Assembly: GCA_005191425.1 (NCBI GenBank)
Contig: SUPR01000001.1
Location: 30,001 to 62,000 of the forward strand
Source: Candidatus Helarchaeota ASGARD archaeon Hel_GB_B
Lineage (GTDB): Archaea > Asgardarchaeota > Lokiarchaeia > Helarchaeales > HEL-GB-B
Reading direction: 5' to 3'
Length of the DNA: 32,000 bases
Part shown: positions 1,593-32,000 of the stretch, piece by piece
Numbering within the stretch: position 1 is the stretch's first letter
How the letters are laid out: each line of letters begins with the position of its first letter
Made by a program: the position numbers and the translations under genes
Notes under the pieces: generated by a model
What the model was told of the DNA's origin: nothing
Database searches by the model: none
What the model saw: only the letters and a program-made list of their open reading frames with translations

Positions 1593-4500
1593 TTGGCACA
1601 AGTTGAAGTTATCACGAAAGATGTTATAATAGATGTACTGACAAATAACTGGCTAACAAAGCCAGAATTATTTAAAAAACTTCCACCGATAAGAGAACAG
1701 AGTACTGTAAAAGTTATTAATGATTATTTAGATACATTAACCCAAAAAGGAATTGTTACAAAAAAAATAATAAAAGGTAGAATTTGTTTTGGAATTTTTA
1801 AAGAAAAAGGGAACGAACCACATCTTAAACAAACAAAATTGGACCAAATAATGCCTAAAGACCGGCAAATTAAAAAGACGGAGTCAAGAGTAAAAATAGG
1901 AAAAACTGTTTACACAAAAACAGTACCAAAGACAAAAGTAACTAAATCCAATAAAAAGACTTCAAATAAAATAAAAAAATCTGTGGATAATACTCAACTT
2001 AAAACTAAAAAAGAAAAAGGTACACCGAAAACAGATTCGATTGAAAAAAAGGACAATATTAAAAAAGAATCTATCAAAAAAAAGGAAACTCCAGCTAAAT
2101 CTGACCTAAAAAATAGACCAGACCAAAAGCCAAATTTACCAATTAAATCCAAATCTAAATCTGAAAGTAAATCAAAAGCCGCAACTGATATTAAATCAGA
2201 TCAAGGAGCAGAATCACATCCAAAATCTAAAGAAACTCAAAAACCTGAATTTAAAGAAAAAACCGAATTATCAAATATAATAGAAAAGGAGAAAATAAAA
2301 GTTAGCCACAAATATAAAAGACGAAAAATTAATAAATCAGGAATTTTACCGACACGAGAATATGTCATGAGCAAAAAAGAAGAAGTTGGTACAGATAGAG
2401 CTTATCAACAACTTTCTCCCGCTGAATTTTTTAAGAAGAATAAAGCAATTGCAGGTTTTGATAATGATCAAAAGGCAGTTTATACAACAATTAGAGAATT
2501 AGTTGAAAATTCTATTGATGCAGCTGAAGCAATCGAAAAGCCCCCAGATATTTTTATAAAAATGGAGTCGCTTCCGAATAATAGATATAAGATTACAATC
2601 CGTGATAATGGCTCAGGGGTACCTGATGAAGAGATCCCAAAATGTTTTGGTATATTATTATATGGATCTAAATATATAAGAAAACAAGGAAGAGGTGCAT
2701 TTGGTTTTGGAGGTAAGATGGCAATATTATATGGACAGATATCAACATTAGAACCTGTCGAAATAAAAAGTTCTACTAATGGAAAAGAAATTTATTATTA
2801 CAAAATGAGGATTGATATAAAAAATAATGAACCGATAATTGAAGAATATAAAGTAATACCAAATTCGGATAATTGGACAGGAACAGAAATATCATTTAAA
2901 TTTAAAGGAGATTATCCTAGAGTACGAAAAAAAGTATTAGAATACTTAAATAAAACTGCAATTATCACACCTCATGCAGAAATCGAATATATTGAACCAA
3001 TAGATGAGCGATGTGAAAAATGTAGATCAGATAGAGTTGAAACTCTTGGAGATGTGATATACTGTAAAAAATGTAGTAATAAATTTATTCATAATATAAA
3101 TATTAATGATAATTTTACTTTAAAAAAGATATTTCAAAATAAAATCGGTGGAATTGATAAAGACCTCTTTAACAAAATAAAATTGGATTTGTCGGATATT
3201 TTAGACGCTGAAATTGATAAACTCAGTAATTTAAGAGAAATATATAATAAAATTGAAGATATTTATGGAAGTCCAATAGGAATAACCAAGGATAATTTAA
3301 TTAATAAAATTTTTAAATTAATTTTAAAAGGAATTAAGAACTTTACAATTATTTCTAAGAAATATAAGAATATTTCAGAAATAGATGTTACTACAAAAAA
3401 AGAAATAATAGAATTAATTGAAAATATAAATAATTTGTTTAAATATGTGGGTGGAAAGTCATTCCCAATTACAAGTTTAACACCCGCAAATATTAAAACA
3501 AAATTAGAACATGAAAAAAAATTTCTAACTAGAGCAAAAAATTTTGATGCTTTTCTTTTAGATATAATTTCAGGACTTGGAAAAAAGACATTAAAAAAGG
3601 TAGAGGATGAATATGGAGAAAATTTAAAAATAGATATTTTCGAAGCAGAATCTAAAATTGATATGAATAAATTATATAAAATATTATATAAAAATCTTAC
3701 ATCTGGATTAATAAACATTAAAGATTTGACATTTGAACAATTCAAACAACTTATAGAAGAAGTAAAAAAAGAAAAAATTAAATATATCTCTAAATTAAAA
3801 GATGGAGTCCTTGAATATATCAGAAAAGATGCGTTTCTATCTCAGAAAGAGCCCTATAAATTTATAAATAATTCAGTGGAAAAATGTCCATATTGTAATT
3901 CATCAGATATAATACAAATTGGGGACTGGAGGCAATGTCAAGTAAGTTCATGCAAGCATAATTATTTAAATATTTATAGACACATTTATAGAAGAGGTAC
4001 TACAGAATTACCGCCAAACCCGACTGCCAGTCTTCCGCATCCGCACGGAATTGATGCAGATACATTATTAGAAATGATTAAAGCAGAATTAAGCGAATTT
4101 TATATCACCTATGAACCTATAGGTAATTATTCTATGCAAAAACTATTAAGAAAAAATATTAAAGGAATTGGAAAAGAAACACTCAATAAGATTGAAGAAT
4201 TAACGCCCGAATCCCTTGAGAAAGATGCCGATAAATTTAGAAATGTTAATCAATTGTATAAGGCAATTGAAAAAGCAGTGGGACATCCAATAGGAAAAGT
4301 TGAGGGTAAAAAAACAGTTTACAACATTAATAATTTAAAATTTGAAGAATTTAAAGAAATTATTAACAATGAACTTTCAAATAATACTAATTTAGACTCT
4401 ATTTTGAAAAAGTTATTTTCAAGATTGCGGGTTAAAATCTTAAATGAAATTAAAAAAGAATTAGATATACAAATCGACCAACAGATTCCTTCAAATATTG

Positions 4501-5639
4501 ATTTAGAAAAGTTATACAAATTATTATTAAAAAAACTCCCTAAAACCAATTCAATTAATGTAAAAGAATTAACTCTTGAAAAATTAAAACAATTAATCGA
4601 AAATGTCAAAAAAGATAAACATGAAGAGTTTAGGAAAGCAAGCCCAAATTTTTATTCATTTATGAATAAGAGATTTCAGAGGACCGGGAAAAAAACAATT
4701 AATAATTTCTGTGAATTTGCGCGGCAAAATTCAACATTAAAGCTTTATCCAGAAACTTTACTAATGGACCTAGATAAAGATGCCATAGTTAAAATCACGG
4801 ATTTACTTCAAAAATTTCCATTTATGAGGCCAGATGCTAGTTGTTTGGCTCCTATAGGAGAACAATTGCTTTTAAAAGGAATTATGAAGGAGATGAACCC
4901 TGAATGGGCTAGTACAGTCCAAAGACCACCTGAAGTTTGTGAAGGACATCCATTTATAATTGAGATGGGACTTGCTTATGGAGGAAAAATAGATTCTTCG
5001 GGTGATTATTTACAAAGATTTGCTAACCGTATTCCATTACTTTATGAATCAAGTATGGGTGTTTGTGCTACTGCAATTAAAAAAATCAATTGGAGACATT
5101 ATAAATTAGATTTAGATAAAATGCCAATACATATTTTTATTCACATAGTATCTACGAAAATACCGTGGGGACGCTTTGGCAAGGAATATATTGCAAATAA
5201 ACCAGAAATTAGGTCAGAAATAGAAAAAGGGATCAAATACTTAGCGGGACAACTCCGTACTTATTTGAGTAAAATTAGAAAAAAGGAATCTATTAAAAAG
5301 AAAGTTTTTAAATTGAAAATTTTTGGCCGCGCATTAATAGAGCCTTTAGCAGAATTAGTTGAAGCAGATCCATCGATCATCGTTAGAATAATATATAATT
5401 ATATTATAAGTAAAAGACCAAAAAAAGAAAAAAGTAAAAATCTGTATAAGAATTTTTCAAACTTTTTTGATGATTTAAGTCTTTTTGATAAATTAGATTT
5501 AGAATATCTGAAATTACTGGTTAAAGAAAAAAGTAAGAATCCATTTAAGAATTTCTTAAATTTTTTTGATAACTTTAATTATATAAACTTATTAATTAAA
5601 CTAAAAATAAATGATCAAGATGTCGACCAAAAGAGTTAG
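1593..5639 (+). CDS. top6B: DNA topoisomerase VI subunit B with large N-terminal extension and two internal insertions
   Basis: LSPAEFF, GHKL motifs RELVENSIDA / DNGSG / GRGAFGFGG, PHPHG, transducer RFANRIPLLY, NWRHY and GKEYIA; directly upstream of top6A. The conserved core begins near the ATG at 2367 (aa 259), an alternative start. Confidence 0.95.
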   Translation: MAQVEVITKDVIIDVLTNNWLTKPELFKKLPPIREQSTVKVINDYLDTLTQKGIVTKKIIKGRICFGIFKEKGNEPHLKQTKLDQIMPKDRQIKKTESRVKIGKTVYTKTVPKTKVTKSNKKTSNKIKKSVDNTQLKTKKEKGTPKTDSIEKKDNIKKESIKKKETPAKSDLKNRPDQKPNLPIKSKSKSESKSKAATDIKSDQGAESHPKSKETQKPEFKEKTELSNIIEKEKIKVSHKYKRRKINKSGILPTREYVMSKKEEVGTDRAYQQLSPAEFFKKNKAIAGFDNDQKAVYTTIRELVENSIDAAEAIEKPPDIFIKMESLPNNRYKITIRDNGSGVPDEEIPKCFGILLYGSKYIRKQGRGAFGFGGKMAILYGQISTLEPVEIKSSTNGKEIYYYKMRIDIKNNEPIIEEYKVIPNSDNWTGTEISFKFKGDYPRVRKKVLEYLNKTAIITPHAEIEYIEPIDERCEKCRSDRVETLGDVIYCKKCSNKFIHNININDNFTLKKIFQNKIGGIDKDLFNKIKLDLSDILDAEIDKLSNLREIYNKIEDIYGSPIGITKDNLINKIFKLILKGIKNFTIISKKYKNISEIDVTTKKEIIELIENINNLFKYVGGKSFPITSLTPANIKTKLEHEKKFLTRAKNFDAFLLDIISGLGKKTLKKVEDEYGENLKIDIFEAESKIDMNKLYKILYKNLTSGLINIKDLTFEQFKQLIEEVKKEKIKYISKLKDGVLEYIRKDAFLSQKEPYKFINNSVEKCPYCNSSDIIQIGDWRQCQVSSCKHNYLNIYRHIYRRGTTELPPNPTASLPHPHGIDADTLLEMIKAELSEFYITYEPIGNYSMQKLLRKNIKGIGKETLNKIEELTPESLEKDADKFRNVNQLYKAIEKAVGHPIGKVEGKKTVYNINNLKFEEFKEIINNELSNNTNLDSILKKLFSRLRVKILNEIKKELDIQIDQQIPSNIDLEKLYKLLLKKLPKTNSINVKELTLEKLKQLIENVKKDKHEEFRKASPNFYSFMNKRFQRTGKKTINNFCEFARQNSTLKLYPETLLMDLDKDAIVKITDLLQKFPFMRPDASCLAPIGEQLLLKGIMKEMNPEWASTVQRPPEVCEGHPFIIEMGLAYGGKIDSSGDYLQRFANRIPLLYESSMGVCATAIKKINWRHYKLDLDKMPIHIFIHIVSTKIPWGRFGKEYIANKPEIRSEIEKGIKYLAGQLRTYLSKIRKKESIKKKVFKLKIFGRALIEPLAELVEADPSIIVRIIYNYIISKRPKKEKSKNLYKNFSNFFDDLSLFDKLDLEYLKLLVKEKSKNPFKNFLNFFDNFNYINLLIKLKINDQDVDQKS
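3111..4820 (+). repeat. Five H2TH-like repeat units within Top6B, starting at about 3111, 3540, 4125, 4389 and 4647
   Basis: NFTLKKIFQNKIGGIDKDLFNKI...IYNKIEDIYGSPIG aligns with NYSMQKLLRKNIKGIGKETLNKI...LYKAIEKAVGHPIG. IDMNKLYKILYKNL-TSGLINIKDLTFEQFKQLIEEVKKEK aligns with IDLEKLYKLLLKKLPKTNSINVKELTLEKLKQLIENVKKDK (840 nt apart). Confidence 0.8.
5424..5609 (+). repeat. Diverged 99-nt (33-aa) tandem duplication in the Top6B C-terminal tail
   Basis: KEKSKNLYKNFSNFFDDL (5424) and KEKSKNPFKNFLNFFDNF (5523); also visible at DNA level (aaagaaaaaagtaa.aat......aagaattt). Confidence 0.8.
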
Positions 5640-11153: not shown

Positions 11154-11918
11154 ATGTTACATTCATTTCATGTTATTGAGAAAATAAGTGGAAGATCAAT
11201 TTTTTCTAAATTATTTAAAGAGTTATTGATAGATCCAGCACTATTAAGTGGGTTTCTTTCAGCTATGAATTCATTTGCAATGAGTGAATTAGCAGATAAG
11301 GGAATTGAAAATATTGATATGAAAAATATTCGTTGGGTTTATATTGATGATAAAGATTTATTATTTATTATTGGCGCAGATAAAGAAGATGAAGCAGAAA
11401 TGCTAAAGAACCAACTAAAAGTCCTCAAGGATTCTTTTATTGAGTTTTTTTACATCAAGGATGGGTTCAGTAATATCAACTGGGATGGTAATACAACTAT
11501 TTTCCAAGATTTTGAGCCTGTTTTGGAGGAAAATGTTAAGAGCTGGGAAGAAGCTAAAAAAGTAAAAAATGCAGCAGCATTAATGGACTTGCTAGATATT
11601 TATCAAAATTTATTTGCTAAGCTTGCATTATTTCCAGAAGCAAAACCACTTGATTTAGAAAATATCGATATCATGGAAATGGCATTTGATGAACAAAATG
11701 CATCATGGAACGTCCATAAATTAGCTAAATTAGATGAACAAGATTTAAGAGCGAAACTTAAGGACGTAATCAGTAAATTTGTAATAATTTTGCAAAAAAC
11801 TGCAAAAGATTATTATACCAAAATCAAGACCTTTGTTTTTCCATACATTAGAGAAGATTGGCAACGAATTAAAGATGCTAAAATGGACGAAGATATAATT
11901 AATTTATTCTTAACTTAG
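11154..11918 (+). CDS. Longin-like domain protein with helical C-terminal region (Asgard-type)
   Basis: N-terminal beta-beta-alpha pattern with SGRSIF and DPALLSGFLSAMNSFA, characteristic of Asgard longin-fold proteins. Confidence 0.7.
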   Translation: MLHSFHVIEKISGRSIFSKLFKELLIDPALLSGFLSAMNSFAMSELADKGIENIDMKNIRWVYIDDKDLLFIIGADKEDEAEMLKNQLKVLKDSFIEFFYIKDGFSNINWDGNTTIFQDFEPVLEENVKSWEEAKKVKNAAALMDLLDIYQNLFAKLALFPEAKPLDLENIDIMEMAFDEQNASWNVHKLAKLDEQDLRAKLKDVISKFVIILQKTAKDYYTKIKTFVFPYIREDWQRIKDAKMDEDIINLFLT

Positions 11919-20030: not shown

Positions 20031-20519
20031 ATGAGTATAAATAATAAAATAAAATATGACTTTAAGAATAAATCACTAGCTGATATCCTGCTTGACGAGC
20101 TAAAGTATCTAAGGTCAAGGACAGGTATTAGAGTAAGCATCATTTTATCTCAAAGTGGTAAAATACTGTCAATTCATGAGGATGCAGCATATGTGCCCGA
20201 CCAATTAAGATATGGAGCAAGAAATCAACATATTGATAAAGAATATTTATCAAAATGGATTGTTTCTACTTCTAGGACTATAGAATTCGTTTCAGAAAAA
20301 ATGTTTACCGATGGAATAAAATTTATTATTTTAGAAGGAAATGATAAGAAAGAAGCAATAATAATGAATTATAAAGACCCAGATCCAGATATTTCCTTTA
20401 TTTTAATGGGTTTATTAACAAAAGCTGGATCAATTGGACTTGGATATCAAGAAATAAAAGAGAGTTCTGAAAGAATAAAAGATATTTTAATAAGCTATAA
20501 AAATTATCAGAATTTATAA
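20031..20519 (+). CDS. Roadblock/LC7 (MglB-like) domain protein
   Basis: Helix, GIRVSIILSQSGKILS, helix, IILEG, strands, then a C-terminal helix IGLG...IK...ERIKDIL: roadblock topology. Confidence 0.72.
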   Translation: MSINNKIKYDFKNKSLADILLDELKYLRSRTGIRVSIILSQSGKILSIHEDAAYVPDQLRYGARNQHIDKEYLSKWIVSTSRTIEFVSEKMFTDGIKFIILEGNDKKEAIIMNYKDPDPDISFILMGLLTKAGSIGLGYQEIKESSERIKDILISYKNYQNL

Positions 20520-20684
20520 TATAATTAGGTATTATTAAAGAATAGTGATATTTTTATTAAGTATATTGAGAAAATAAATATATGAATTAATGACAAGATT
20601 TTTATGATGTTTTAATAAAATCTTAAATTTCAATTATAAATCGTTTTAGTATAAAGATTAACCAAATCAAATTTCAGAAAGTTC

Positions 20685-20689
20685 AGGAG
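20685..20689 (+). promoter_or_regulatory. Shine-Dalgarno motif for the TTG-initiated coiled-coil gene
   Basis: AGGAG 10 nt upstream of TTG 20700. Confidence 0.5.
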
Positions 20690-20699
20690 TTTAGAAATT

Positions 20700-21092
20700 T
20701 TGTCAGAATTTGCTAGATTTATGGAATCTATTTCATCAGAAGCAACTGAAACAAAGATAAATGAACTTTCTGATGTCCTTAATAAAGTACTTCAGATAAT
20801 AACAAAAGCACTTGATGATTTAACTGTAAAGATGGTCGGACTTGAAGAAGAAATATATTTTTTAGAGCAAAAGATTGAAAATATCCAGAGGAGGTCAAAG
20901 AATATTCAAGCATCACTGTCCAGACAAGAGGTAAGCCAGAAGGTAGTGACTAATAAAGAAACTAAACCACCAACTACCCAAACACAGATTAATCAACCTC
21001 AAAAACAAACCACAGAAAATGTAAAACCTGTACCCCTTAGATCTGCAGTAAATACTGAACTTAAAGATCTATTTAAAAAATTGAAAAAATAA
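20700..21092 (+). CDS. Small coiled-coil protein with Gln/Thr/Pro linker and C-terminal WH2-like helix (paralogue 1)
   Basis: Heptad region aa ~15-75, low-complexity linker, terminal RSAVNTELKDLFKKLKK; SD motif upstream. Confidence 0.7.
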   Translation: MSEFARFMESISSEATETKINELSDVLNKVLQIITKALDDLTVKMVGLEEEIYFLEQKIENIQRRSKNIQASLSRQEVSQKVVTNKETKPPTTQTQINQPQKQTTENVKPVPLRSAVNTELKDLFKKLKK

Positions 21093-21535
21093 TGATGTTC
21101 AAAATGAGTGATAATTTTTTTAATATTTTAATGAAATCATCTACGGCTTCAATTGATGAAAAAATAAAGAAACTAAGCATGGTATTAGACAAAATTATGG
21201 AAGTTGCAATCAAGTCAATAAGTGGAATTGAAAATCAAGTTCAAACTTTTGACGCAATATTAGCAGAAATTAGAAATAAAATTGAAGGACTAGAAGCTAA
21301 TTTGACCGTTTTGGAACAGAAACAAGAAGCAATGGCAAAATCAAGTATTGGTAGCAGTACAACATTAGAAACGCCAATGCCCTCCCAATCTTCTCGTCCA
21401 GTTGAAACAAAACCTATAAATAAACCATTGGCACCTCCTGTATCAGCATCAACTCCAAAACCAACTCGGCCAATTAACCCCAGAGCTGAATTACAATCAG
21501 AATTAAAAGCACTTTTTTCAAAAATGAAGCGTTAA
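21092..21535 (+). CDS. Small coiled-coil protein with Pro/Ser/Thr linker and C-terminal WH2-like helix (paralogue 2)
   Basis: TAATG stop/start overlap with paralogue 1; heptads, PLAPPVSASTPKPTRPINP linker, terminal RAELQSELKALFSKMKR. Confidence 0.7.
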   Translation: MMFKMSDNFFNILMKSSTASIDEKIKKLSMVLDKIMEVAIKSISGIENQVQTFDAILAEIRNKIEGLEANLTVLEQKQEAMAKSSIGSSTTLETPMPSQSSRPVETKPINKPLAPPVSASTPKPTRPINPRAELQSELKALFSKMKR

Positions 21536-21546
21536 AAAAAGAAGTT

Positions 21547-22458
21547 TTATTTATTAAAAAAATTTAATATTTCAGTTGCACCACTTTTTAATGCAAGCCC
21601 TGCTAATTGAGTAGAGGAATTAGGGCCAATTTGAGTTATTATTAAAAATCCGCTTTTTTTGTTAGGAATTTTTACTGGCATTAAAATTAATTTGCCTCGT
21701 TCACCATCAATTGTTGAGAAGGTCTTACCAATATTAAAAGCATCGCCCACAGAATTTGCAGACAATGCCACTGTTGATGCAATTAATGAACCAATATTGA
21801 CATCAATTTCATGTGGAAAAGTCGAGAATAAAACACGCCCCTCAGTGGTAGAAATTAATGCAGCTATTGCTCCAGCTTTTGTTTTTATAGTTTCCATGAT
21901 TTTATTTAGAGCTTTCATTGTTTCTTCATCATATAAAGGGACATTTTCTTTAGGTCCAATTAAAAATTTGCACATTTTATCTCCTTTGGCAATACATTCA
22001 GTTTCATTTATCTCAACTTCAGAATCGAATAATACACTAGCCATACCTTTTAATATTCCTTGAATACCAAAACATGATGCTATTCCTTCTTCGTAAGCTT
22101 CAGGGGAGTTTTGAATCTCAATATATATTTTTTTATTATCTTCATCTATATTTATATTCCCCAATGTTGCACCCCAGCCTCCTCGTTCTAAGCTTCTTAA
22201 GATAAACCTAAACGCGGTATTTTTATCTGCTTTTTTCTTATCTATAACAAGTTCCATAAATCTTTTACCAATATCTTCTCCAATTTTAATATAAATTGGC
22301 CGAAGACCCTCTTTTAAAAATTTATTTGCAGTGAGATACATCTGTCTAAAATGTTCAATATGAAGTATAATTATTCTGAAATTGAAGCCTTTAATTTCTC
22401 CTTTAAAAATAGAAAAATCTTTGAAAGTAAAATTTTTAGTCTCTTCTAACAAGCCCAT
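21547..22458 (-). CDS. V4R domain - roadblock/LC7 fusion protein
   Basis: V4R: GGWG, GILKG, ETECIAKGDKMCKF. Roadblock: AALISTTEGRVL, IDGERGKLILMP, terminal helix. AGGTG upstream. Confidence 0.8.
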   Translation of the reverse strand: MGLLEETKNFTFKDFSIFKGEIKGFNFRIIILHIEHFRQMYLTANKFLKEGLRPIYIKIGEDIGKRFMELVIDKKKADKNTAFRFILRSLERGGWGATLGNINIDEDNKKIYIEIQNSPEAYEEGIASCFGIQGILKGMASVLFDSEVEINETECIAKGDKMCKFLIGPKENVPLYDEETMKALNKIMETIKTKAGAIAALISTTEGRVLFSTFPHEIDVNIGSLIASTVALSANSVGDAFNIGKTFSTIDGERGKLILMPVKIPNKKSGFLIITQIGPNSSTQLAGLALKSGATEILNFFNK

Positions 22459-22521
22459 ATTTTACACCTTTTATTATTAAAAAAGATAAATCATTTAAAA
22501 TAAAAATAGAGTTAGATAGAT

Positions 22522-25500
22522 TTAAACTCTTGTAATTTTGGTAGATGAAGCCATCCAAATGGGTCCAATTATTTCGTGAATTAACGCTACCAAAGTTTCT
22601 TGTTGAGATACTAATGCAGTTAATTGTGTTAGGTCGTATTTTTCAGAATATGGTGCAATTAATACTTCTTCACCGTCTCTACCAACTGCAAATAGGTTCA
22701 TCTCAGGTCTTTGCCTTATTTGTACATTTCCTAATTCTAGCAACTCTCTAACCTGGTCTTTTGCTTCGTTCAAGATACGAGATGCAACAATTATTCTTAT
22801 TCTTCGACTAGCGGATTTAATAGTTTCTAGAGGCAGGTCACTAAAATCAGGAGCTACAATAGATACAGTTGATTTTGTTCTCATAAGAATGTCCCGGATA
22901 TATTCTTTTATTGCCTCAACACCTACTAATGGCCAAGTAAGTTCGCCGGATTTCGCTAGTATATTAGTAGTTTCCTGCCATACTGCTCTTAGAAGTTGAC
23001 TTACTTTTAAGGTTTCACCTTCAGCTTCTCTGAATGTAAATGCCGCATCTTTATTAGTGTTTGTAAGTCGCTCTGTTAATATAGAATCGGTTTCATCTAA
23101 TTTTGCAGCTAATTTTTCATTTAATGAATTTGCGTTTGATTCATAGTCAGTTTGGTGTTGGCTAGCTAATTGTAGTAAATCAGTTTCTAGTTTTGCAGCA
23201 TCTGCTTGGAATCCTGCGGCATGGTTGGAAATTGTTTCTTTACATTCCTCATAAGTTTTGGTAGTCAATTCTTTAATTTGTGCTAAATATTTATTATCAA
23301 TTTCGTTTATATCGTTTTTTATTTGTGAAAATCCTTCATTCATAGTATTAGATATTTGCTCTTGGACATCATTTGCCATTTTATTAACTCGTTCGTTATC
23401 ATTGTTGACAAAATCTTTAATAGTATTTTTCATTTGATTTAATGCTTCGTGGCCACGGTTTTTAACATCATCTACTCGTTTAATTTCGGTCTGTACTATA
23501 TTTGCGACATCATCTTTTTTCTCGTCTATCGATTTATTCATATTAGCTGTTATTTCATCTAATTCTCCTAACTTATTATCATCAATTTCTTGAAGATTTT
23601 TCTTATGCTCCTGGATTATATTTGCAAGCAATGAAATAGATTTATTACGAATTTCATGTGATTGTGATTCAACATTACCTACTCTTAAGTCTAATGCTTT
23701 ATAAAATTCATCACGCATTGAATCAAGTTCGTTTTGATATTCTTTGATTCTATCATCTAGAGTATCAGAAAGAACTTGCTCCAATTTACTTGTATCTTCT
23801 TGTAAAAGTTTATTTTGGCCGGAAATCTTGGATAAAAATTCGTCTTTCAATTTATTTAGTAAGTCGCTGTATCTTTTTATGACATCATCTGATTTACTAA
23901 CTATCGAGTCCTTCATTTTGTAAAAATCTAATTCTATTGCTTCTACTTGAGAATTAATTATTTCTTGAGACTGGTCACCATATTTAGAAGCATTATCCTT
24001 GAACCAATTTAAGTTATTATTATTATATTTGTCAAAAACAGCAGATACATTTTCCTTTTTAGTATTTATCGATGAAATTTCGGAACTGATAATATCAGCA
24101 AGATTTTCAGTAGTATCGTTTGACCATTTGTCTAAAGATTCATTTACCTTATCTTGATAGTCTTTAATATTTACTTCTAACTCTTTAACTAAATTTTTTG
24201 ATGTTTCATTTATGGTATTAATTAATTGTTCATTAGCCCCGCGTTCTTCCTTAATTTTTTCATTTAATTTTCTAATAGCATTATCAATAATTTCCTTAAT
24301 TTCAGGTCTGTCTTTACTATATTCTTTTAATTCATTTTCCAGTTCTTTTTCCCAGTCACGGAGATTATGAATTGTTTTTGTTATTTCCCCTGATGAAACA
24401 TTTTTAATTGAGTCGACCTTGGTCTGAATTTCGTCATGTAAAGTTTTCGATAAAGATTTTATCTTATTTTTTTCTTCAGATTTCAGATTTTTAATTGAAT
24501 TATTTGCTTTTGATTTTAAATCATCCAAATTTTTGTTTAAATTAGAAATACTTGCATCTAATTCTTGATTGAATTCACTCCTTGCGGAATTTATTTCATC
24601 TGTTAATTGAGCTAAACGCTCGTCTAAATTCGAAGTTAATGTTTTTTCCAAATCAGTTGACCCGGCTTGAAGCCTTTTAATTTGACTTGTAAATTTGTCA
24701 AGAAATTCCTGTTGTATATCACCAACTAATTGCTTGAACCTTGAAATTAAATCATTTGTAAAATTTGCTACATCATTTGTAAATTGATAGAATTCGGTAT
24801 CTCGTTTAGTAATTTCATTATTAAACAATTTTTCAGCAGTTTCACGAAAATTGCTGGCTCTATTTTTAAACCATTCCATATGATTATTTTGTGAATTTTG
24901 AATTTCAGACCTTAATTCCTTATCTTTTTCCCAAGTAGCTTCAATTTCCTTTTTTATCATTTCTAAGAATTCGTCTGATAAATTTTTATGCCATTCATCA
25001 TAGGCAGTGTAATTTTGATTGCGATTACTATTAATAATATCATTTACTCCTTTGACATATTCGACCATTATTCGATCAGTGAATTCATCAAATACGCCAT
25101 CAATGCGAGTATTAAGTAGATTTAATCCTTCTACATTTTCGGCAGAGACTTTATCGAGAATTTCATTGCCGTAATTGTCCAAGACATTATCAATATTATT
25201 ATTTAAATTATTTAATTCATTTTTATGTTCATCGGCTGTAGTATCATGTATATTTTTAGTTTTTTGCATTAATTCATTATATCTATTTTCCAGGTCATTA
25301 GCCAAAGTGTCTTCATATTCATGAATTAATTTATTGTGGTCATCATTACGCTGATTAAAATTGTTAGTTATCTCTTCTTTTCTCGATTCCACATCAGAAT
25401 TTAATTTTATTACTTGATTTGTAATTAAATTAGAAATTCCATCTCTAGCATTAATTGTATCTTTGGCAAATTGTTCTAATTGAGTATTTATAGCCTCTGC

Positions 25501-25893
25501 TACTTGATCTTTAAGAGTTATGACCTCTTGCTTTAAGTCATTAATATGTTTATTAATGTTAGAATCGAAATCCTCTCGTTGTTTGATAGTTTTTTCTCTA
25601 TATTGATCCAAAAATTGAGTAAAGGCAGAATAAGGGACGACTGGCATATATCTATTTATATCTTTAGCTGCTGAACCTATTGCAACAGCAAGGTTATTAT
25701 CTAAAAATTTTTGTATTGTATTTCTCGCTTCTTCCATTGAGATATTTGCCAATGCCGCTAAAGATGATTCAGTTATATATCCTTTTGCATATAATGCGAC
25801 AAAGGCTCTTGCTTCAGCTTCTGTTAATGTAACACCTCGTTCTTTAAAAGTATCTATAATTATTTGAAACATATTTTGGTTTTGTACACTCAT
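22522..25893 (-). CDS. TrmB-like wHTH + ~880-aa helical rod + TrmB/PLD-like C-terminal domain
   Basis: N-terminus GVTLTEAEARAFVALYAKG...RYMPVVP is TrmB-HTH-like. The C-terminus from aa ~983 (G..AIKEYIRDIL.RTKSTVSIVAP...RDGEEVLIAP) is TrmB effector-domain-like with no HKD motif. The middle is helical with hendecad periodicity. GGAGG at 25903-25907. Confidence 0.75.
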   Translation of the reverse strand: MSVQNQNMFQIIIDTFKERGVTLTEAEARAFVALYAKGYITESSLAALANISMEEARNTIQKFLDNNLAVAIGSAAKDINRYMPVVPYSAFTQFLDQYREKTIKQREDFDSNINKHINDLKQEVITLKDQVAEAINTQLEQFAKDTINARDGISNLITNQVIKLNSDVESRKEEITNNFNQRNDDHNKLIHEYEDTLANDLENRYNELMQKTKNIHDTTADEHKNELNNLNNNIDNVLDNYGNEILDKVSAENVEGLNLLNTRIDGVFDEFTDRIMVEYVKGVNDIINSNRNQNYTAYDEWHKNLSDEFLEMIKKEIEATWEKDKELRSEIQNSQNNHMEWFKNRASNFRETAEKLFNNEITKRDTEFYQFTNDVANFTNDLISRFKQLVGDIQQEFLDKFTSQIKRLQAGSTDLEKTLTSNLDERLAQLTDEINSARSEFNQELDASISNLNKNLDDLKSKANNSIKNLKSEEKNKIKSLSKTLHDEIQTKVDSIKNVSSGEITKTIHNLRDWEKELENELKEYSKDRPEIKEIIDNAIRKLNEKIKEERGANEQLINTINETSKNLVKELEVNIKDYQDKVNESLDKWSNDTTENLADIISSEISSINTKKENVSAVFDKYNNNNLNWFKDNASKYGDQSQEIINSQVEAIELDFYKMKDSIVSKSDDVIKRYSDLLNKLKDEFLSKISGQNKLLQEDTSKLEQVLSDTLDDRIKEYQNELDSMRDEFYKALDLRVGNVESQSHEIRNKSISLLANIIQEHKKNLQEIDDNKLGELDEITANMNKSIDEKKDDVANIVQTEIKRVDDVKNRGHEALNQMKNTIKDFVNNDNERVNKMANDVQEQISNTMNEGFSQIKNDINEIDNKYLAQIKELTTKTYEECKETISNHAAGFQADAAKLETDLLQLASQHQTDYESNANSLNEKLAAKLDETDSILTERLTNTNKDAAFTFREAEGETLKVSQLLRAVWQETTNILAKSGELTWPLVGVEAIKEYIRDILMRTKSTVSIVAPDFSDLPLETIKSASRRIRIIVASRILNEAKDQVRELLELGNVQIRQRPEMNLFAVGRDGEEVLIAPYSEKYDLTQLTALVSQQETLVALIHEIIGPIWMASSTKITRV
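23685..25000 (-). repeat. Internal duplication of about 150 aa with a 289-aa offset in the rod protein
   Basis: Gap-free match NNHMEWFKNRAS...EFY...EFLDKF...LEKTLTSNLDERL vs NNNLNWFKDNAS...DFY...EFLSKI...LEQVLSDTLDDRI; the Trp codons lie at 24871 and 24004. Confidence 0.8.
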
Positions 25894-25902
25894 TTTATAT
25901 TT

Positions 25903-25907
25903 CCTCC
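25903..25907 (-). promoter_or_regulatory. Shine-Dalgarno motif linking the P-loop/TPR gene to the rod gene
   Basis: TAAGGAGGAAATATAAAATG on the minus strand: the upstream stop abuts GGAGG, 9 nt before the ATG. Confidence 0.6.
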
Positions 25908-27791
25908 TTATGAACTACCTCCTTCTATGGCTACTTTTGTTCTATTTAACTTTTCTACAAAATCAGCCAACCCTAAATTTTGGAATTTTTGAATGGAATC
26001 CTCCAAAATGTCCTTGGCTTTATCTACTTGCCCTTGAATTGCATATACATTTGATAAGTTAGTATAAAATTGCCATGCATAAAAATATTCATTATTTGAA
26101 AAGAATGTCTTTGCTGCTTTTGTTAGTACATTTATTACTTCATTTGTGGCATTTATTTCTTCGAAATACTTTTTAGCTTGAGTATAGTTTGCTCTGGCTA
26201 ATGGATATGCCTTGTCCTTAATGCAATCTTCGGCTTTTTCGACAAATAAATTAGCCAATTTATTTATTAATTCTTTCACTTTTTCGGGTTCTCCTAAGCT
26301 TCTATTTACATCAATTGCATTAATGAGGACATCCCTGCCATAATCTAATAACCCTTTTTCGAGGAACTTTTCTGTAAAACTTTCCAAAATATTTGCGGCT
26401 TTTTCTTTTTCATTAACTTTTACGAGACTATCCCCTGCAAGTAATATAAACTTAAAAACTTCATTATAATATCCATAATTATAATAATTCATAGCTATAT
26501 CATAATAACCATTTGCGATATGCTCAACTGCAGATACCAGTCCCGCTGTTAGAGAATCAGATCTTAGACGTTCTAATTCTTCGAATTGAAAATCTTCCAA
26601 TAATCTTCCATTTTCAGCCAAATTCATTGCAACTTTAATTAGACCTCTTGCTTGCGCATCTACTGCAATATCACCCAAACTACTTCGTAAATAAATCCAA
26701 AAACTGTCTAATGTAATATAATAAACACTATCTTCTTTACTCAAATATTTTCCAATCATTTTTTCAAGTATTGGTTTGATATCTTCACTTTTTGCGCCAA
26801 TCGAACGAGCTATTATATCAATATCTGCAAAATTTGCATTTTCCATTGCAAATGACTGTAATATTTTTCTTTCGTCCTCAGTTAATTCTTTAAGTTCTCG
26901 TCCAAAACCTTCTTTAACTCCGCCTTCAGCTTTAAACCATACATCTTTACCTAGTTCTCTTGTATCGCCTCTATTTTCATACAACCATCCGCCATTATAA
27001 ACTAAATAAAGAGGAATTCCACCACTATGTCTTAATAAATTCTCTTTTATCTCTTCACTAAATTTAATTCCTGCTGCATCTGCTCTTTTATCAAGTAATT
27101 CTATTGCATCAGCATTATTTAAAGTTGGTAAACCTATTTCGTGAAAATCCTCTAATACATAACGAACTTTTGGATAATACTTTTCCCAAACAGACATCAA
27201 AAAGAGAACAGGGAGGTTTGGATTTTTTACATCCGTTTTTATAGCGTCTACTATTGCTTTTAATACATCAAATGCATTGTCATGATTTAATATTATAAAT
27301 CTTTCAACAAGATTAGAAACAATTAGAATACCTTTTTTATTGAATTTATTACCTTGAATATTTTTAATAATTTTAGGTAATTTTTTAACAATTTTTTTCA
27401 AAAAAGAATCAATATACTTACTCATATCAGGGATTTCATAGCTGCTTTTTAAAAGCGGAGCTTTTTTACCTGGTTTTGTAATAGGTTTCTTTTTGTCCAC
27501 GGGTTTCGTTATTTCATCTAATTCATTGCTTATTACATCGAAATAACCTTCAATATTTATCAATGGTACATCATATCTAATTACCAGAAAACCATTTGAT
27601 GAAGCTATGGACTCGATTTGTTTTAAAAAACTTCTTCTACCAATTCCTTCGCGTCCATGTAATATTAAGCCATGTGAAATATTTTCTCGGTCAGCTATTT
27701 TTTGCAAAATTCCTGAAAATTGATCTATTTCTCTTTTTCTTCCCACAAAGAATTTCGCTGGGCATGTTTCTAATTTAAATGGGTCCGTCAT
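25908..27791 (-). CDS. STAND/AAA-like P-loop domain (degenerate) + wHTH + TPR/SNAP-like helical repeats
   Basis: DPF...FVGRKREI, hhhHGREGIGRRS at the Walker A position, SGGIPLYL, wHTH from aa ~303 (LTEDERKIL), and repeated A...Y..A...F helices at the C-terminus. Confidence 0.75.
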   Translation of the reverse strand: MTDPFKLETCPAKFFVGRKREIDQFSGILQKIADRENISHGLILHGREGIGRRSFLKQIESIASSNGFLVIRYDVPLINIEGYFDVISNELDEITKPVDKKKPITKPGKKAPLLKSSYEIPDMSKYIDSFLKKIVKKLPKIIKNIQGNKFNKKGILIVSNLVERFIILNHDNAFDVLKAIVDAIKTDVKNPNLPVLFLMSVWEKYYPKVRYVLEDFHEIGLPTLNNADAIELLDKRADAAGIKFSEEIKENLLRHSGGIPLYLVYNGGWLYENRGDTRELGKDVWFKAEGGVKEGFGRELKELTEDERKILQSFAMENANFADIDIIARSIGAKSEDIKPILEKMIGKYLSKEDSVYYITLDSFWIYLRSSLGDIAVDAQARGLIKVAMNLAENGRLLEDFQFEELERLRSDSLTAGLVSAVEHIANGYYDIAMNYYNYGYYNEVFKFILLAGDSLVKVNEKEKAANILESFTEKFLEKGLLDYGRDVLINAIDVNRSLGEPEKVKELINKLANLFVEKAEDCIKDKAYPLARANYTQAKKYFEEINATNEVINVLTKAAKTFFSNNEYFYAWQFYTNLSNVYAIQGQVDKAKDILEDSIQKFQNLGLADFVEKLNRTKVAIEGGSS

Positions 27792-28327
27792 ATTAAAAAC
27801 CTTTTTTATTTTAATTTATCCTTAATATATATGTGTGGTTTTAAAAATTTTGAACATTGAATTATTTTAAATTATATTGATCTTTAATATTTATATGTTT
27901 AATTTAAAGGTTTAATTTAAAGAGATTTTGATGATTTTTTAAAAATACAAATTTTAATTTTTTAATTTATATTTTTAGGAATTTCTGTATTACACATAAA
28001 AATATTAGACTTTTTGAGAGAAATATCCGTTATTTATATTTTTAAATATTTTGTTATTATATTTTCTGACTGTAAAAAAGCAGATTTTAGATTAGACATA
28101 TTTAAAATACAATAAATTACTGATAAAAAGGTTAGTAATTTAATATCTTACATTTTATAATTTTTTTTATAAGTCAGATTAACTGAAATTTATATTGATT
28201 AAGTTTAAATAAAATAATAATGTTTCAAATATTAATTTTTTAATCGATAACGAAATATAAATATAATAACTACTAATAGTTAATATCAAAATCACTATTT
28301 AATTTGTTTTCACTTTAAAAAGTTAAT

Positions 28328-30732: not shown

Positions 30733-31236
30733 ATGCAAGTCTATATTACAACACTTGGGCGATCTGAATGGGCAGTTATCAATAGTTATTATGCAGTTGT
30801 TAAAAATAAGAGATATTACCCAGATTTAATTTATATCATAACTGAAGATTTGTTCCAAGATAGAATTCACAAGATAATAGATGGTCTAAATATCATTTCA
30901 AATGAGTTTGGATTTAATCCAGAATATAAATTGACAATTGTAAAAGAATCCGAGTTTTCTGATGCAAAGAATAAAATCGATATAATCGCAAAAGATTTAG
31001 AAAATTCTAATAATATGATTGCCGTAGATATTACATCTGGTCGAAAAGTATTAGTAATTAATATTCTCTTATTAATATTCTATTCAAAAATAAAAGTTCA
31101 ACATATTTTTTATTTAGCAATAAAGACAATTAAAGGGGTTAATAAACCATATGAAATGATACCAATTCAAATTCAATCATTAAGAGATTTTATCCAAGAA
31201 ATTAATGAGGTGAAAAATAGACCAAATGGCACATGA
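30733..31236 (+). CDS. Stand-alone CARF domain protein
   Basis: N-terminal ITTLGRS and VDITSGRK (31024-31047) are the two CARF motifs; GGGAG at 30725-30729. Confidence 0.75.
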   Translation: MQVYITTLGRSEWAVINSYYAVVKNKRYYPDLIYIITEDLFQDRIHKIIDGLNIISNEFGFNPEYKLTIVKESEFSDAKNKIDIIAKDLENSNNMIAVDITSGRKVLVINILLLIFYSKIKVQHIFYLAIKTIKGVNKPYEMIPIQIQSLRDFIQEINEVKNRPNGT

Positions 31237-32000
31237 AACAATAATTAATCCCCCAGAATTACAAATTTTATTGAACAAATTTGACGACTATTCGATATCA
31301 TTTCCTGCTTTTTCTAAAGATACAATTTTAACTGCAACACCATTTAATGATTGTTATAAAATAAAAGTAAATGATAATTATTTTGATTCCGATCGAGATG
31401 GTCTTAACATTTTTAACGATATTTATTATTCAGAAATACCAAATAATCAAGATTTTCTAGAATGTCTCTTGTCAAGTAATTGTATTACCTATCCTAACGT
31501 GGGAGATTTTGAGTATATAAGAAAATCATATAAAAATATCCATAAAAAGGTATATTTTGCTGTGGATACAAATATTCTCTATCATAGGTTTATCTCTTTC
31601 TCTAAATTAAAAGAAGAGAAAATCGTATTAGCACCTACCATTAAAGATGAAATAGAGTCATCAATAAATTATAAATATAATAGGGAGGAAATTAATGAAA
31701 TTAAAAAAATTGTAAGATATAACAAAAATTTATTTGATGAATTTAGAAATAGACGCATAAAAAAGTCAAGAAAGGCAGCATATCTTGCATTAAATGAGCT
31801 AAAACTTTTAAATATCCTTAATATAGACAGCGTAAAAATAGAGCAAGAAAATTATGAACAAAATGATTTAAAAATTGTTAGAGAGTTAAAAGCTTTTGAA
31901 AATGACTCAGGAGCGTTGGTAGTATTATTAACAGCAGATAGAGCAATGGTAGATTTCTGCAGAATAGAGTCCTTAGATTATTTTAATTTTGATTATCCAA
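31226..32000 (+). CDS. PIN-domain ribonuclease-like protein, 3'-truncated by the window edge (absent from the ORF track)
   Basis: My translation is open from ATG 31226 to the window end: MAHETIINPPELQILL...FAVDTNIL...PTIKDEI...NDLKIV...LLTADRAMVD..., giving the PIN acidic tetrad. Overlaps the CARF stop by 11 nt. Confidence 0.85.
   Translation, partial: MAHETIINPPELQILLNKFDDYSISFPAFSKDTILTATPFNDCYKIKVNDNYFDSDRDGLNIFNDIYYSEIPNNQDFLECLLSSNCITYPNVGDFEYIRKSYKNIHKKVYFAVDTNILYHRFISFSKLKEEKIVLAPTIKDEIESSINYKYNREEINEIKKIVRYNKNLFDEFRNRRIKKSRKAAYLALNELKLLNILNIDSVKIEQENYEQNDLKIVRELKAFENDSGALVVLLTADRAMVDFCRIESLDYFNFDYP

Follow-up and report, generated by a model that had tools for sequence, protein, structure and literature searches.

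A Helarchaeales locus pairing a giant TrmBL2-like rod protein with a STAND-like ATPase: a candidate composite of an Asgard operon and attached sensor and adaptor genes

The TrmB and TrmBL2 proteins of the Thermococcales (PDB 5bpd/5bpi, 3qph, 2f5t) share an N-terminal TrmB-type winged helix, a pairing helix of ~35 residues, and a PLD-like domain. In Asgard archaea, the structures of roadblock and TRAPPC3/V4R proteins have been solved, and a Heimdall protein in which TRAPPC3 is fused to a longin domain was described (Tran et al. 2024, PMC10933270). In the Asgard archaeon MK-D1, the genes of the TRAPPC3/V4R and roadblock proteins generally lie outside operons with GTPases, and in regulators such as MopR/PoxR the V4R domain senses a ligand (PMC10933270). 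Here, we examine a window of 32,000 nucleotides (nt) from Candidatus Helarchaeota Hel_GB_B, an Asgard archaeon of the order Helarchaeales with a low GC content (~28%), in which the gene of a giant TrmBL2-like rod protein (g5) follows that of a STAND-like ATPase (g6) and precedes that of a V4R-roadblock fusion (g4); three further genes, g1 to g3, converge on them from the opposite strand. We lean, without strong conviction, towards a composite reading of this region, in which a g6-g5 operon that is widespread among Asgard archaea has been joined by an order-specific g4 and, more loosely, by the adaptor pair g2/g3 and by g1. Our search of the literature found no description of such a STAND-ATPase/TrmB-giant operon, in agreement with a first-pass annotation of this DNA that knew of no such module. 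The genes and the region upstream of them are as follows:

g1: 20031-20519, + strand, 162 amino acids (aa); stand-alone roadblock-like protein, probably outside the module

g2: 20700-21092, + strand, 130 aa, TTG start; tandem paralogue of g3

g3: 21092-21535, + strand, 147 aa; adaptor with coiled coil, Pro-rich linker, and docking helix, probable orthologue of an Asgard-wide family

g4: 21547-22458, - strand, 303 aa; fusion of V4R (TRAPPC3/Bet3 fold) and roadblock/LC7

g5: 22522-25893, - strand, 1123 aa; TrmBL2-like protein with a winged helix-turn-helix (wHTH) head, a hendecad helical rod, and a TrmB-type PLD-like domain

g6: 25908-27791, - strand, 627 aa; STAND/AAA+-like NTPase part followed by a winged helix and then by TPR/SNAP-like repeats, its nucleotide site degenerate in this genus

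Intergenic region: 27792-28327, - strand, 536 nt; AT-rich, upstream of g6, read directly

When the open reading frames (ORFs) were re-read, the arrangement first described, with its coordinates, gaps, and ribosome-binding motifs, was recovered throughout. On the minus strand, g6 and g5 are 14 nt apart, with a Shine-Dalgarno-like GGAGG ahead of the g5 ATG, and g5 and g4 are 63 nt apart, with a similar motif, AAAGGTG, ahead of the g4 ATG. We take g4 as the third gene of the unit, probably co-transcribed with g6-g5, and the intergenic region as its likely promoter region. On the plus strand, g1 and g2 are separated by 180 nt, the stop codon of g2 overlaps the start of g3 (TAATG), and the stops of g3 and g4 converge at a distance of 11 nt. 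The description of g2 and g3 as translationally coupled coiled-coil/Pro-rich paralogues is borne out by this overlap and by their common plan of coiled coil, Pro-rich linker, and conserved tail. A domain scan of the six proteins recovered no metabolic enzyme, and none of the window ORFs scanned is a GTPase gene, both as had been claimed.

The evidence for an operon common to Asgard archaea comes from its phyletic spread. With the single g6 protein as query, g6-like genes were found in 26 of 201 Asgard genomes. In every distant locus with enough sequence, the gene after the STAND gene encodes a rod-only protein (480-775 aa). The next gene in 14 of these loci encodes a giant of 1176-1812 aa with a g5-type TrmB C-domain; a further two have a long ORF where the giant would be, and two more, both of one genus, have no giant. 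The Asgard ATPases of this family align with g6 over the full length at 19-25% identity, and the C-domains of the giants match that of g5 at E 1e-8 to 1e-17. The identity of the operon to that of the window falls from 80% in the sister species to 40-47% in other Helarchaeales families and to about 20-25% in those elsewhere in the phylum. A pattern search with the g5 C-domain returned 56 loci, the match in nearly every case closing a frame of more than 800 aa; all but one locus are labelled Asgard, and the operon family thus appears to be a conserved one seen only in these archaea. The exception (L053, DATKTP010000090.1), a contig of a metagenome-assembled genome labelled Candidatus Deferrimicrobium, carries a Helarchaeales-type g5 with 55% identity over the C-domain and is probably a mis-binned archaeal contig. 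The Odin, Thor, and Hermod genomes have giants and no g6 match, and the giants without a STAND neighbor (Odin, Thor, Hermod, Heimdall, Borr) have no neighbor in common.

Within the Helarchaeales, our sample comprises seven related species, several of them represented by short contigs. In all five genomes where the locus is visible (that of the window, G000, and G001, G003, G004, and G005), g6 and g5 are adjacent and g4 is at most one gene away from g5. The sister species (G001) has all six genes in the same order. In another family (G005), g1 is followed by one g2/g3 gene, a coiled-coil ORF, g4, a PAP2 gene, g5, and g6, with some orientations changed; the next gene on the far side of this g1 orthologue encodes a gelsolin-repeat protein with a long Lys-rich tail (L017:6344-7198, - strand). 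In G004, g6 and g5 are followed by an unknown ORF, by g4, and then by the genes of an ArsA/Get3-like ATPase and of a Ras-family GTPase, with g1 and g2/g3 on other contigs; in the family of this genome (f2), a divergent ArsA/Get3-like ATPase comes after the V4R-roadblock gene (L015:8981-10554, L016:1885-2826), the Ras-family gene being next to it in G004. In G003, a g2/g3 gene is directly upstream of g6 on the same strand, and g5 and g4 adjoin on another contig.

The plus-strand genes follow the operon much less faithfully, g2/g3 being near it in three of the five genera whose context can be judged and g1 in two. In the two genomes of the sister family f2 (G004 and G006), g1 is on other contigs, after ORFs of 185-186, 130-136, and 490 aa, which have the same sizes and order as the ORFs upstream of g1 in the window (a 177-aa ORF without assignment, SCP2, and PrpD); on its other side in G004, the one ORF scanned with Pfam is an enoyl-CoA hydratase. 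The position of g1 is thus not conserved and, by this sequence comparison, g1 is probably not part of the module. Hence the view of the six genes as a unit holds for the minus arm (g6-g5, with g4 no more than one gene away) and fails for g1 and g2/g3, which do not keep their places.

The giant g5 has a wHTH head at ~residues 8-84, a rod at ~89-983 with a turn at 527-529, and a PLD-like domain at ~990-1120. Its own Pfam matches are a weak TrmB winged helix (E 0.021) and apolipoprotein-like repeats; three homologous giants give Pfam TrmB scores of 36.7, 30.9, and 22.6 bits at the same position, two of which exceed the cut-off of 25.6. For the fold of the C-domain, the conserved C-terminal 194 residues were modelled with AlphaFold2 (AF2) from an alignment with 20 homologues (predicted local distance difference test, pLDDT, 78). 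The top Foldseek matches of this model are TrmBL2 and TrmB (E 2.5e-10 to 1e-7, with TrmBL2 5bpi at E 2.5e-10), followed by generic PLD-fold proteins. In the model of full-length g5, the same domain superposes on TrmB residues 110-244 (2f5t) with Z 15.3 and a root mean square deviation (rmsd) of 2.8 A over 133 residues (VIA), and on TrmBL2 with Z 14.1; residues 1-87 match wHTH regulators with Z about 10 (VIA). In view of these likenesses, g5 is predicted to be a DNA-binding protein.

Between the head and the PLD-like domain, a helical stretch of ~890 residues (89-983) contains a single proline. Its hydrophobic periodicity is 3.65-3.67 residues (11/3, hendecad), with no heptad signal at 3.5, and it has an internal duplication at offset 289. 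The g5 model has one clean mid-rod helix break, at 527-529, less than 10 residues from the rod midpoint (536); pLDDT peaks on both flanks of this break, and in the orthologues (1027-1135 aa, all of similar length) a G/P-containing turn is kept at the same alignment column. Because this conserved turn is at the midpoint, the rod probably folds back on itself, and residues 370-689 of the model align loosely with chemoreceptor hairpins (Thermotoga MCP 2ch7, Z 12.4, rmsd 11.7). As modelled, g5 is probably a TrmBL2-type head which carries a fold-back arm of roughly 65 nm, the short pairing helix of TrmBL2 having presumably grown into the long hendecad helix. Such a fold-back would place the winged-helix head beside the PLD-like domain, as in TrmBL2, and in a g5 dimer the arm would be a four-helix bundle of chemoreceptor-like build. 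A TrmBL2-type head on an arm tens of nanometers long, encoded beside a switch ATPase, would point to an uncharacterised nucleoid-associated structure. Several paralogues occur per genome, and that of the window holds five TrmB-rod paralogues with frames of 388-1250 aa. The one with the 388-aa frame is ~6 kb from the Lokiactin-type actin gene (coordinates for this pair, G000:C118:33954-34499 and L050:1495-2631).

In the g6 protein of the window, the Walker A site reads GREGIGRRS and SN takes the place of the Walker B Asp. The first-pass annotation had called it a degenerate P-loop-wHTH-TPR protein, which is true of this g6 and is not a trait of the family. Both sites are intact in three other Helarchaeales genera (G003-G005), where Walker A reads GRPGIGKTS and Walker B has its Asp, and in six distant homologues, which share that Asp and a Walker A of the form GxPGIGK[ST]S; the loss of the Walker A Lys and Walker B Asp is hence a recent event in one genus. 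Pfam gives AAA_16 (E 0.003) and SNAP (E 1.8e-4) for g6, and AAA_16 (5e-7) and ATPase_2 (1.7e-6) for a distant homologue, all four under their cut-offs. Against the PDB, the g6 family profile matches RuvB (E 2e-6) and Cdc6 around Walker A, weak winged helices near residues 300-350, and the TPRs of Hop and alpha-SNAP in the C-terminal third; a protein atlas look-up returned only generic TPR/AAA neighbors. In the proposed mechanism, g6 would be the partner switch or scaffold that loads, oligomerises, or reads the state of the g5 rod protein. With its nucleotide-binding residues lost, the g6 of the window would act as a nucleotide-independent scaffold, and this natural loss in a single genus bears on whether the partner of g5 needs nucleotide turnover.

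The identification of g4 as a V4R-roadblock fusion is upheld by two Pfam models above their cut-offs, V4R (PF02830, 44.8 bits against 31) and Robl_LC7 (PF03259, residues 189-262, 26 bits against 23). C129, C155, and C163 are invariant across six orthologues. Full-length orthologues are found only in the Helarchaeales (G001-G005), and the N-terminal part of another stands at the end of one G006 contig. The roadblock nature of g1 is less clear: its alignment (hhalign) with the roadblock half of g4 has 83% probability (E 8e-6, 118 columns), and this match goes without Pfam or PDB sequence support, as neither g1 nor the g1 profile gave a PDB sequence match and g1 had no Pfam match. PDB searches with the single sequences of g1, g4, g6, and the g5 C-domain returned nothing useful. 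A V4R ligand pocket containing these cysteines, coupled to a roadblock fold of the dimerisation/GTPase-regulator type, would make g4 either a sensory input or a link to small GTPases; its attachment suggests a small-ligand or GTPase input to the g6-g5 operon.

These same genes could be taken for an ordinary transcription-control unit, with g5 a TrmB-type regulator, g6 a MalT-like co-regulator in trans (a signal-sensing STAND/TPR protein), g4 a small-molecule sensor, and the rod merely a spacer or oligomerisation device. STAND proteins with TPRs include transcription activators such as MalT, which speaks for such a unit, as do the TrmB/TrmBL2 head and C-domain of g5 and the five paralogues of the host genome, which grade down towards ordinary TrmB size. 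The role of V4R domains as sensors in MopR/PoxR (PMC10933270) also fits. Nonetheless, the ~890 hendecad residues are conserved, in orthologues of 1027-1135 aa, far beyond what a regulator needs, most of the distant loci encode a second, rod-only protein, and g5 lacks the sugar-binding C-subdomain of TrmB, as does the chromatin protein TrmBL2. We consider a regulatory unit of this kind unlikely and prefer the composite reading.

The adaptor pair g2/g3 belongs to a much larger family. A profile of nine Helarchaeales copies matches 156 of the 201 Asgard genomes, and 74 of the 86 high-quality ones, usually with one copy of ~150 aa; g3 scores best against outgroup members, so that g2 looks like a tandem duplicate, and the two-copy arrangement recurs in G001 and G002. 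A third, more divergent paralogue (153 aa), whose linker is rich in Asn/Ser and not in Pro, is on contig C124 of the window's genome. This copy (L113:487-7475) is beside the genes of a ParA/MinD-like ATPase and of an 1855-aa protein without a Pfam match. The family is present in 40 of 40 genomes of one Asgard family without a g6 match, and over 190 kb separate its gene from the operon in each of the three genomes checked that are closed or nearly so (G046, G075, G077). Across 20 Asgard loci, we found no neighbor of the family conserved between families, beyond family-level synteny; Ras-family GTPases lie within 7 kb in 7 of the 20, which we judge near expectation given the numerous Asgard GTPase genes. 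A look-up of g3 in the atlas returned only unnamed Asgard clusters. The profile also recognises the C-terminal region of ~420-aa GTPases of the Gtr1/RagA/Arf-like type in Loki-class genomes. This GTPase-attached module and the roadblock folds of g1 and g4 would make small GTPases a common theme on the g1-g4 side of the locus.

The first-pass annotation had seen WH2-like, actin-binding tails in g2 and g3, a claim which failed every sequence test, and we find no sign that these proteins bind actin. The tail motif, R-x-A-[ILV]-x-x-E-L-K-x-L-F-x-[KR]-x-[KR], hardly varies across the family and has at most a loose likeness to the G-actin-binding helices of WH2 or VASP proteins; the ends of the tails read KMKR or KLKK, without the LKK[TV] signature. 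None of 26 family tails matched WH2 (PF02205) in Pfam at E up to 10, and a profile search of the PDB with the tail, also to E 10, likewise brought up neither WH2 nor VASP chains; such short motifs are hard to detect, and the tails may yet have a function of this kind. On account of the L-x3-L-x2-L pattern and the basic end, a MIM1-like (MIT-interacting) or a membrane-targeting tail was also considered, and neither is adopted here.

The same annotation had proposed that all six proteins form one cytoskeleton/membrane complex of adaptor, long tether, ligand sensor, and actin-binding tails. Several loci accord with this idea: the six genes keep the same order in G001; in G005, g1, one g2/g3 gene, g4, g5, and g6 stay within 9 kb despite inversions, with a gelsolin-repeat gene beside g1; in G003, a g2/g3 gene directly precedes g6; and in G004, the gene pair after g4 encodes the ATPase of ArsA/Get3 type and the Ras-family GTPase. 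The wider distribution tells the other way. In family f2, g1 and g2/g3 are on other contigs, and outside the Helarchaeales the g2/g3 family is unlinked to the operon: it occurs in Asgard families without a g6 match, is distant in the three genomes checked, and lacks a conserved neighbor in 20 loci. Its tail, as said, has no WH2 or VASP match, and the g5 head is of a DNA-binding type and not a membrane or actin module. A single complex of the six proteins is accordingly very unlikely in our judgment. Even less probable, and hardly more than a speculation, is a version in which g5 and g6 form a DNA-anchored rod of ~65 nm, wired via g4 and g1 to small-GTPase signalling and to g2/g3, that tethers the nucleoid to the membrane or cytoskeleton; were it true, this wired scaffold would be a prokaryotic forerunner of the linkage between chromatin and envelope.

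Least credible of all is an anti-virus defence system in which a STAND sensor works with long coiled-coil effectors, on the pattern of Avs or Zorya-like systems. In its favor, many STAND NTPases that carry TPR sensors have a role in defence, ZorA models of PADLOC match the g5 rod and the rod-only protein (E down to 1e-14 to 1e-17), and a Csa3 and PIN gene pair is 3 kb away. We reject it because the ZorA matches are only tail-like (PADLOC/NCBIfam alignments cover only profile positions ~250-800, and the MotA/ExbB-type membrane domain was not found), g6 and g4 match no PADLOC family in a meaningful way, no nuclease, protease, or pore effector is present, and the gene order is kept over many Asgard families with identity falling with kinship, unlike that of patchy defence islands.

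Several observations also weigh against the composite reading that we prefer. All Pfam scores of g6 are under the curated cut-offs. The full-length g5 model is weak (pLDDT 64, predicted template-modelling score 0.28), so that the argument for the fold-back comes from the midpoint turn and from a hairpin alignment that is loose. The synteny counts are small because the Helarchaeales species are few and related and their contigs short. The presence of g2/g3 beside the operon in three of five genera, and in one of them directly upstream of g6 on the same strand, could reflect a real functional tie with the operon. Finally, in the genus Borrarchaeum, a thioredoxin-V4R-V4R protein of 491 aa (L020:12334-13809; L119-L121) is conserved two genes from the STAND gene, and this V4R neighbor speaks for a link of V4R to the operon in a lineage outside the Helarchaeales, if only in a second one.

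Elsewhere in the window, the topoisomerase VI B subunit ORF (1593-5639, + strand, 1348 aa) has its ATPase domain at residues 292-413 and its transducer at 1080-1237; the ~650 residues between them may be an insertion (intein or extra domain). A 254-aa ORF (11154-11918, + strand) matches the first longin domain of FUZ/MON1/HPS1 weakly (E 9e-4, under the cut-off). At 30733-31999 (+ strand), the genes are those of a Csa3-type protein with a CRISPR-associated Rossmann-like domain and, after it, of a PIN-domain protein which runs off the window end.

How, then, do the parts of this locus compare with described systems? The adaptors g2/g3 resemble the Ena/VASP and WH2 actin regulators in combining a coiled coil for oligomerisation with a Pro-rich tract and, at the end, a short amphipathic helix of basic character; however, the domain order is different, there is no EVH1, and the g2/g3 module also occurs on Rag/Arf-like GTPases. 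The rod of g5 shares with chemoreceptor cytoplasmic domains and with the SMC/Rad50 arms a long antiparallel helical hairpin off a globular head, a likeness of architecture only, as g5 lacks an ABC ATPase head and a membrane part and shows no tip signature of methylation or of CheA/CheW binding. Both folds of the Asgard TRAPPC3/V4R and roadblock proteins (PMC10933270) are united in g4, whose conserved Cys cluster resembles the Zn site of Thor-TRAPPC3/PoxR; the fusion is a variant of the TRAPPC3-longin theme in which, unlike in the Heimdall protein, the partner fold is a roadblock C-terminal to V4R. The g4 gene is tied to a rod operon with predicted DNA binding rather than to a GTPase gene.

The likeness of g5 to TrmBL2 and TrmB extends over the N-terminal winged helix, the pairing helix, and the PLD-like domain, and with TrmBL2 it shares the absence of the sugar-binding subdomain. 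It differs from both in its long hendecad helix, whose ~890 residues, turning at the midpoint, replace a pairing helix of some 35, in the pairing of its gene with that of a STAND-like ATPase, and in that its DNA binding is only predicted. The closest relative of the locus as a whole is the STAND/rod-only/TrmB-giant operon of distant Asgard archaea, with which the Helarchaeales operon has in common the ATPase family, the C-domain of the giant, the gene order, and the tight spacing. Unlike these distant operons, it is without the middle rod-only gene and adds the V4R-roadblock gene downstream; in the genus of the window, the Walker A Lys and Walker B Asp are also gone from g6. What is new here is this Helarchaeales variant, which is without the rod-only gene, gains a V4R-roadblock gene, has a P-loop that is dead in one genus, and has a universal adaptor nearby.

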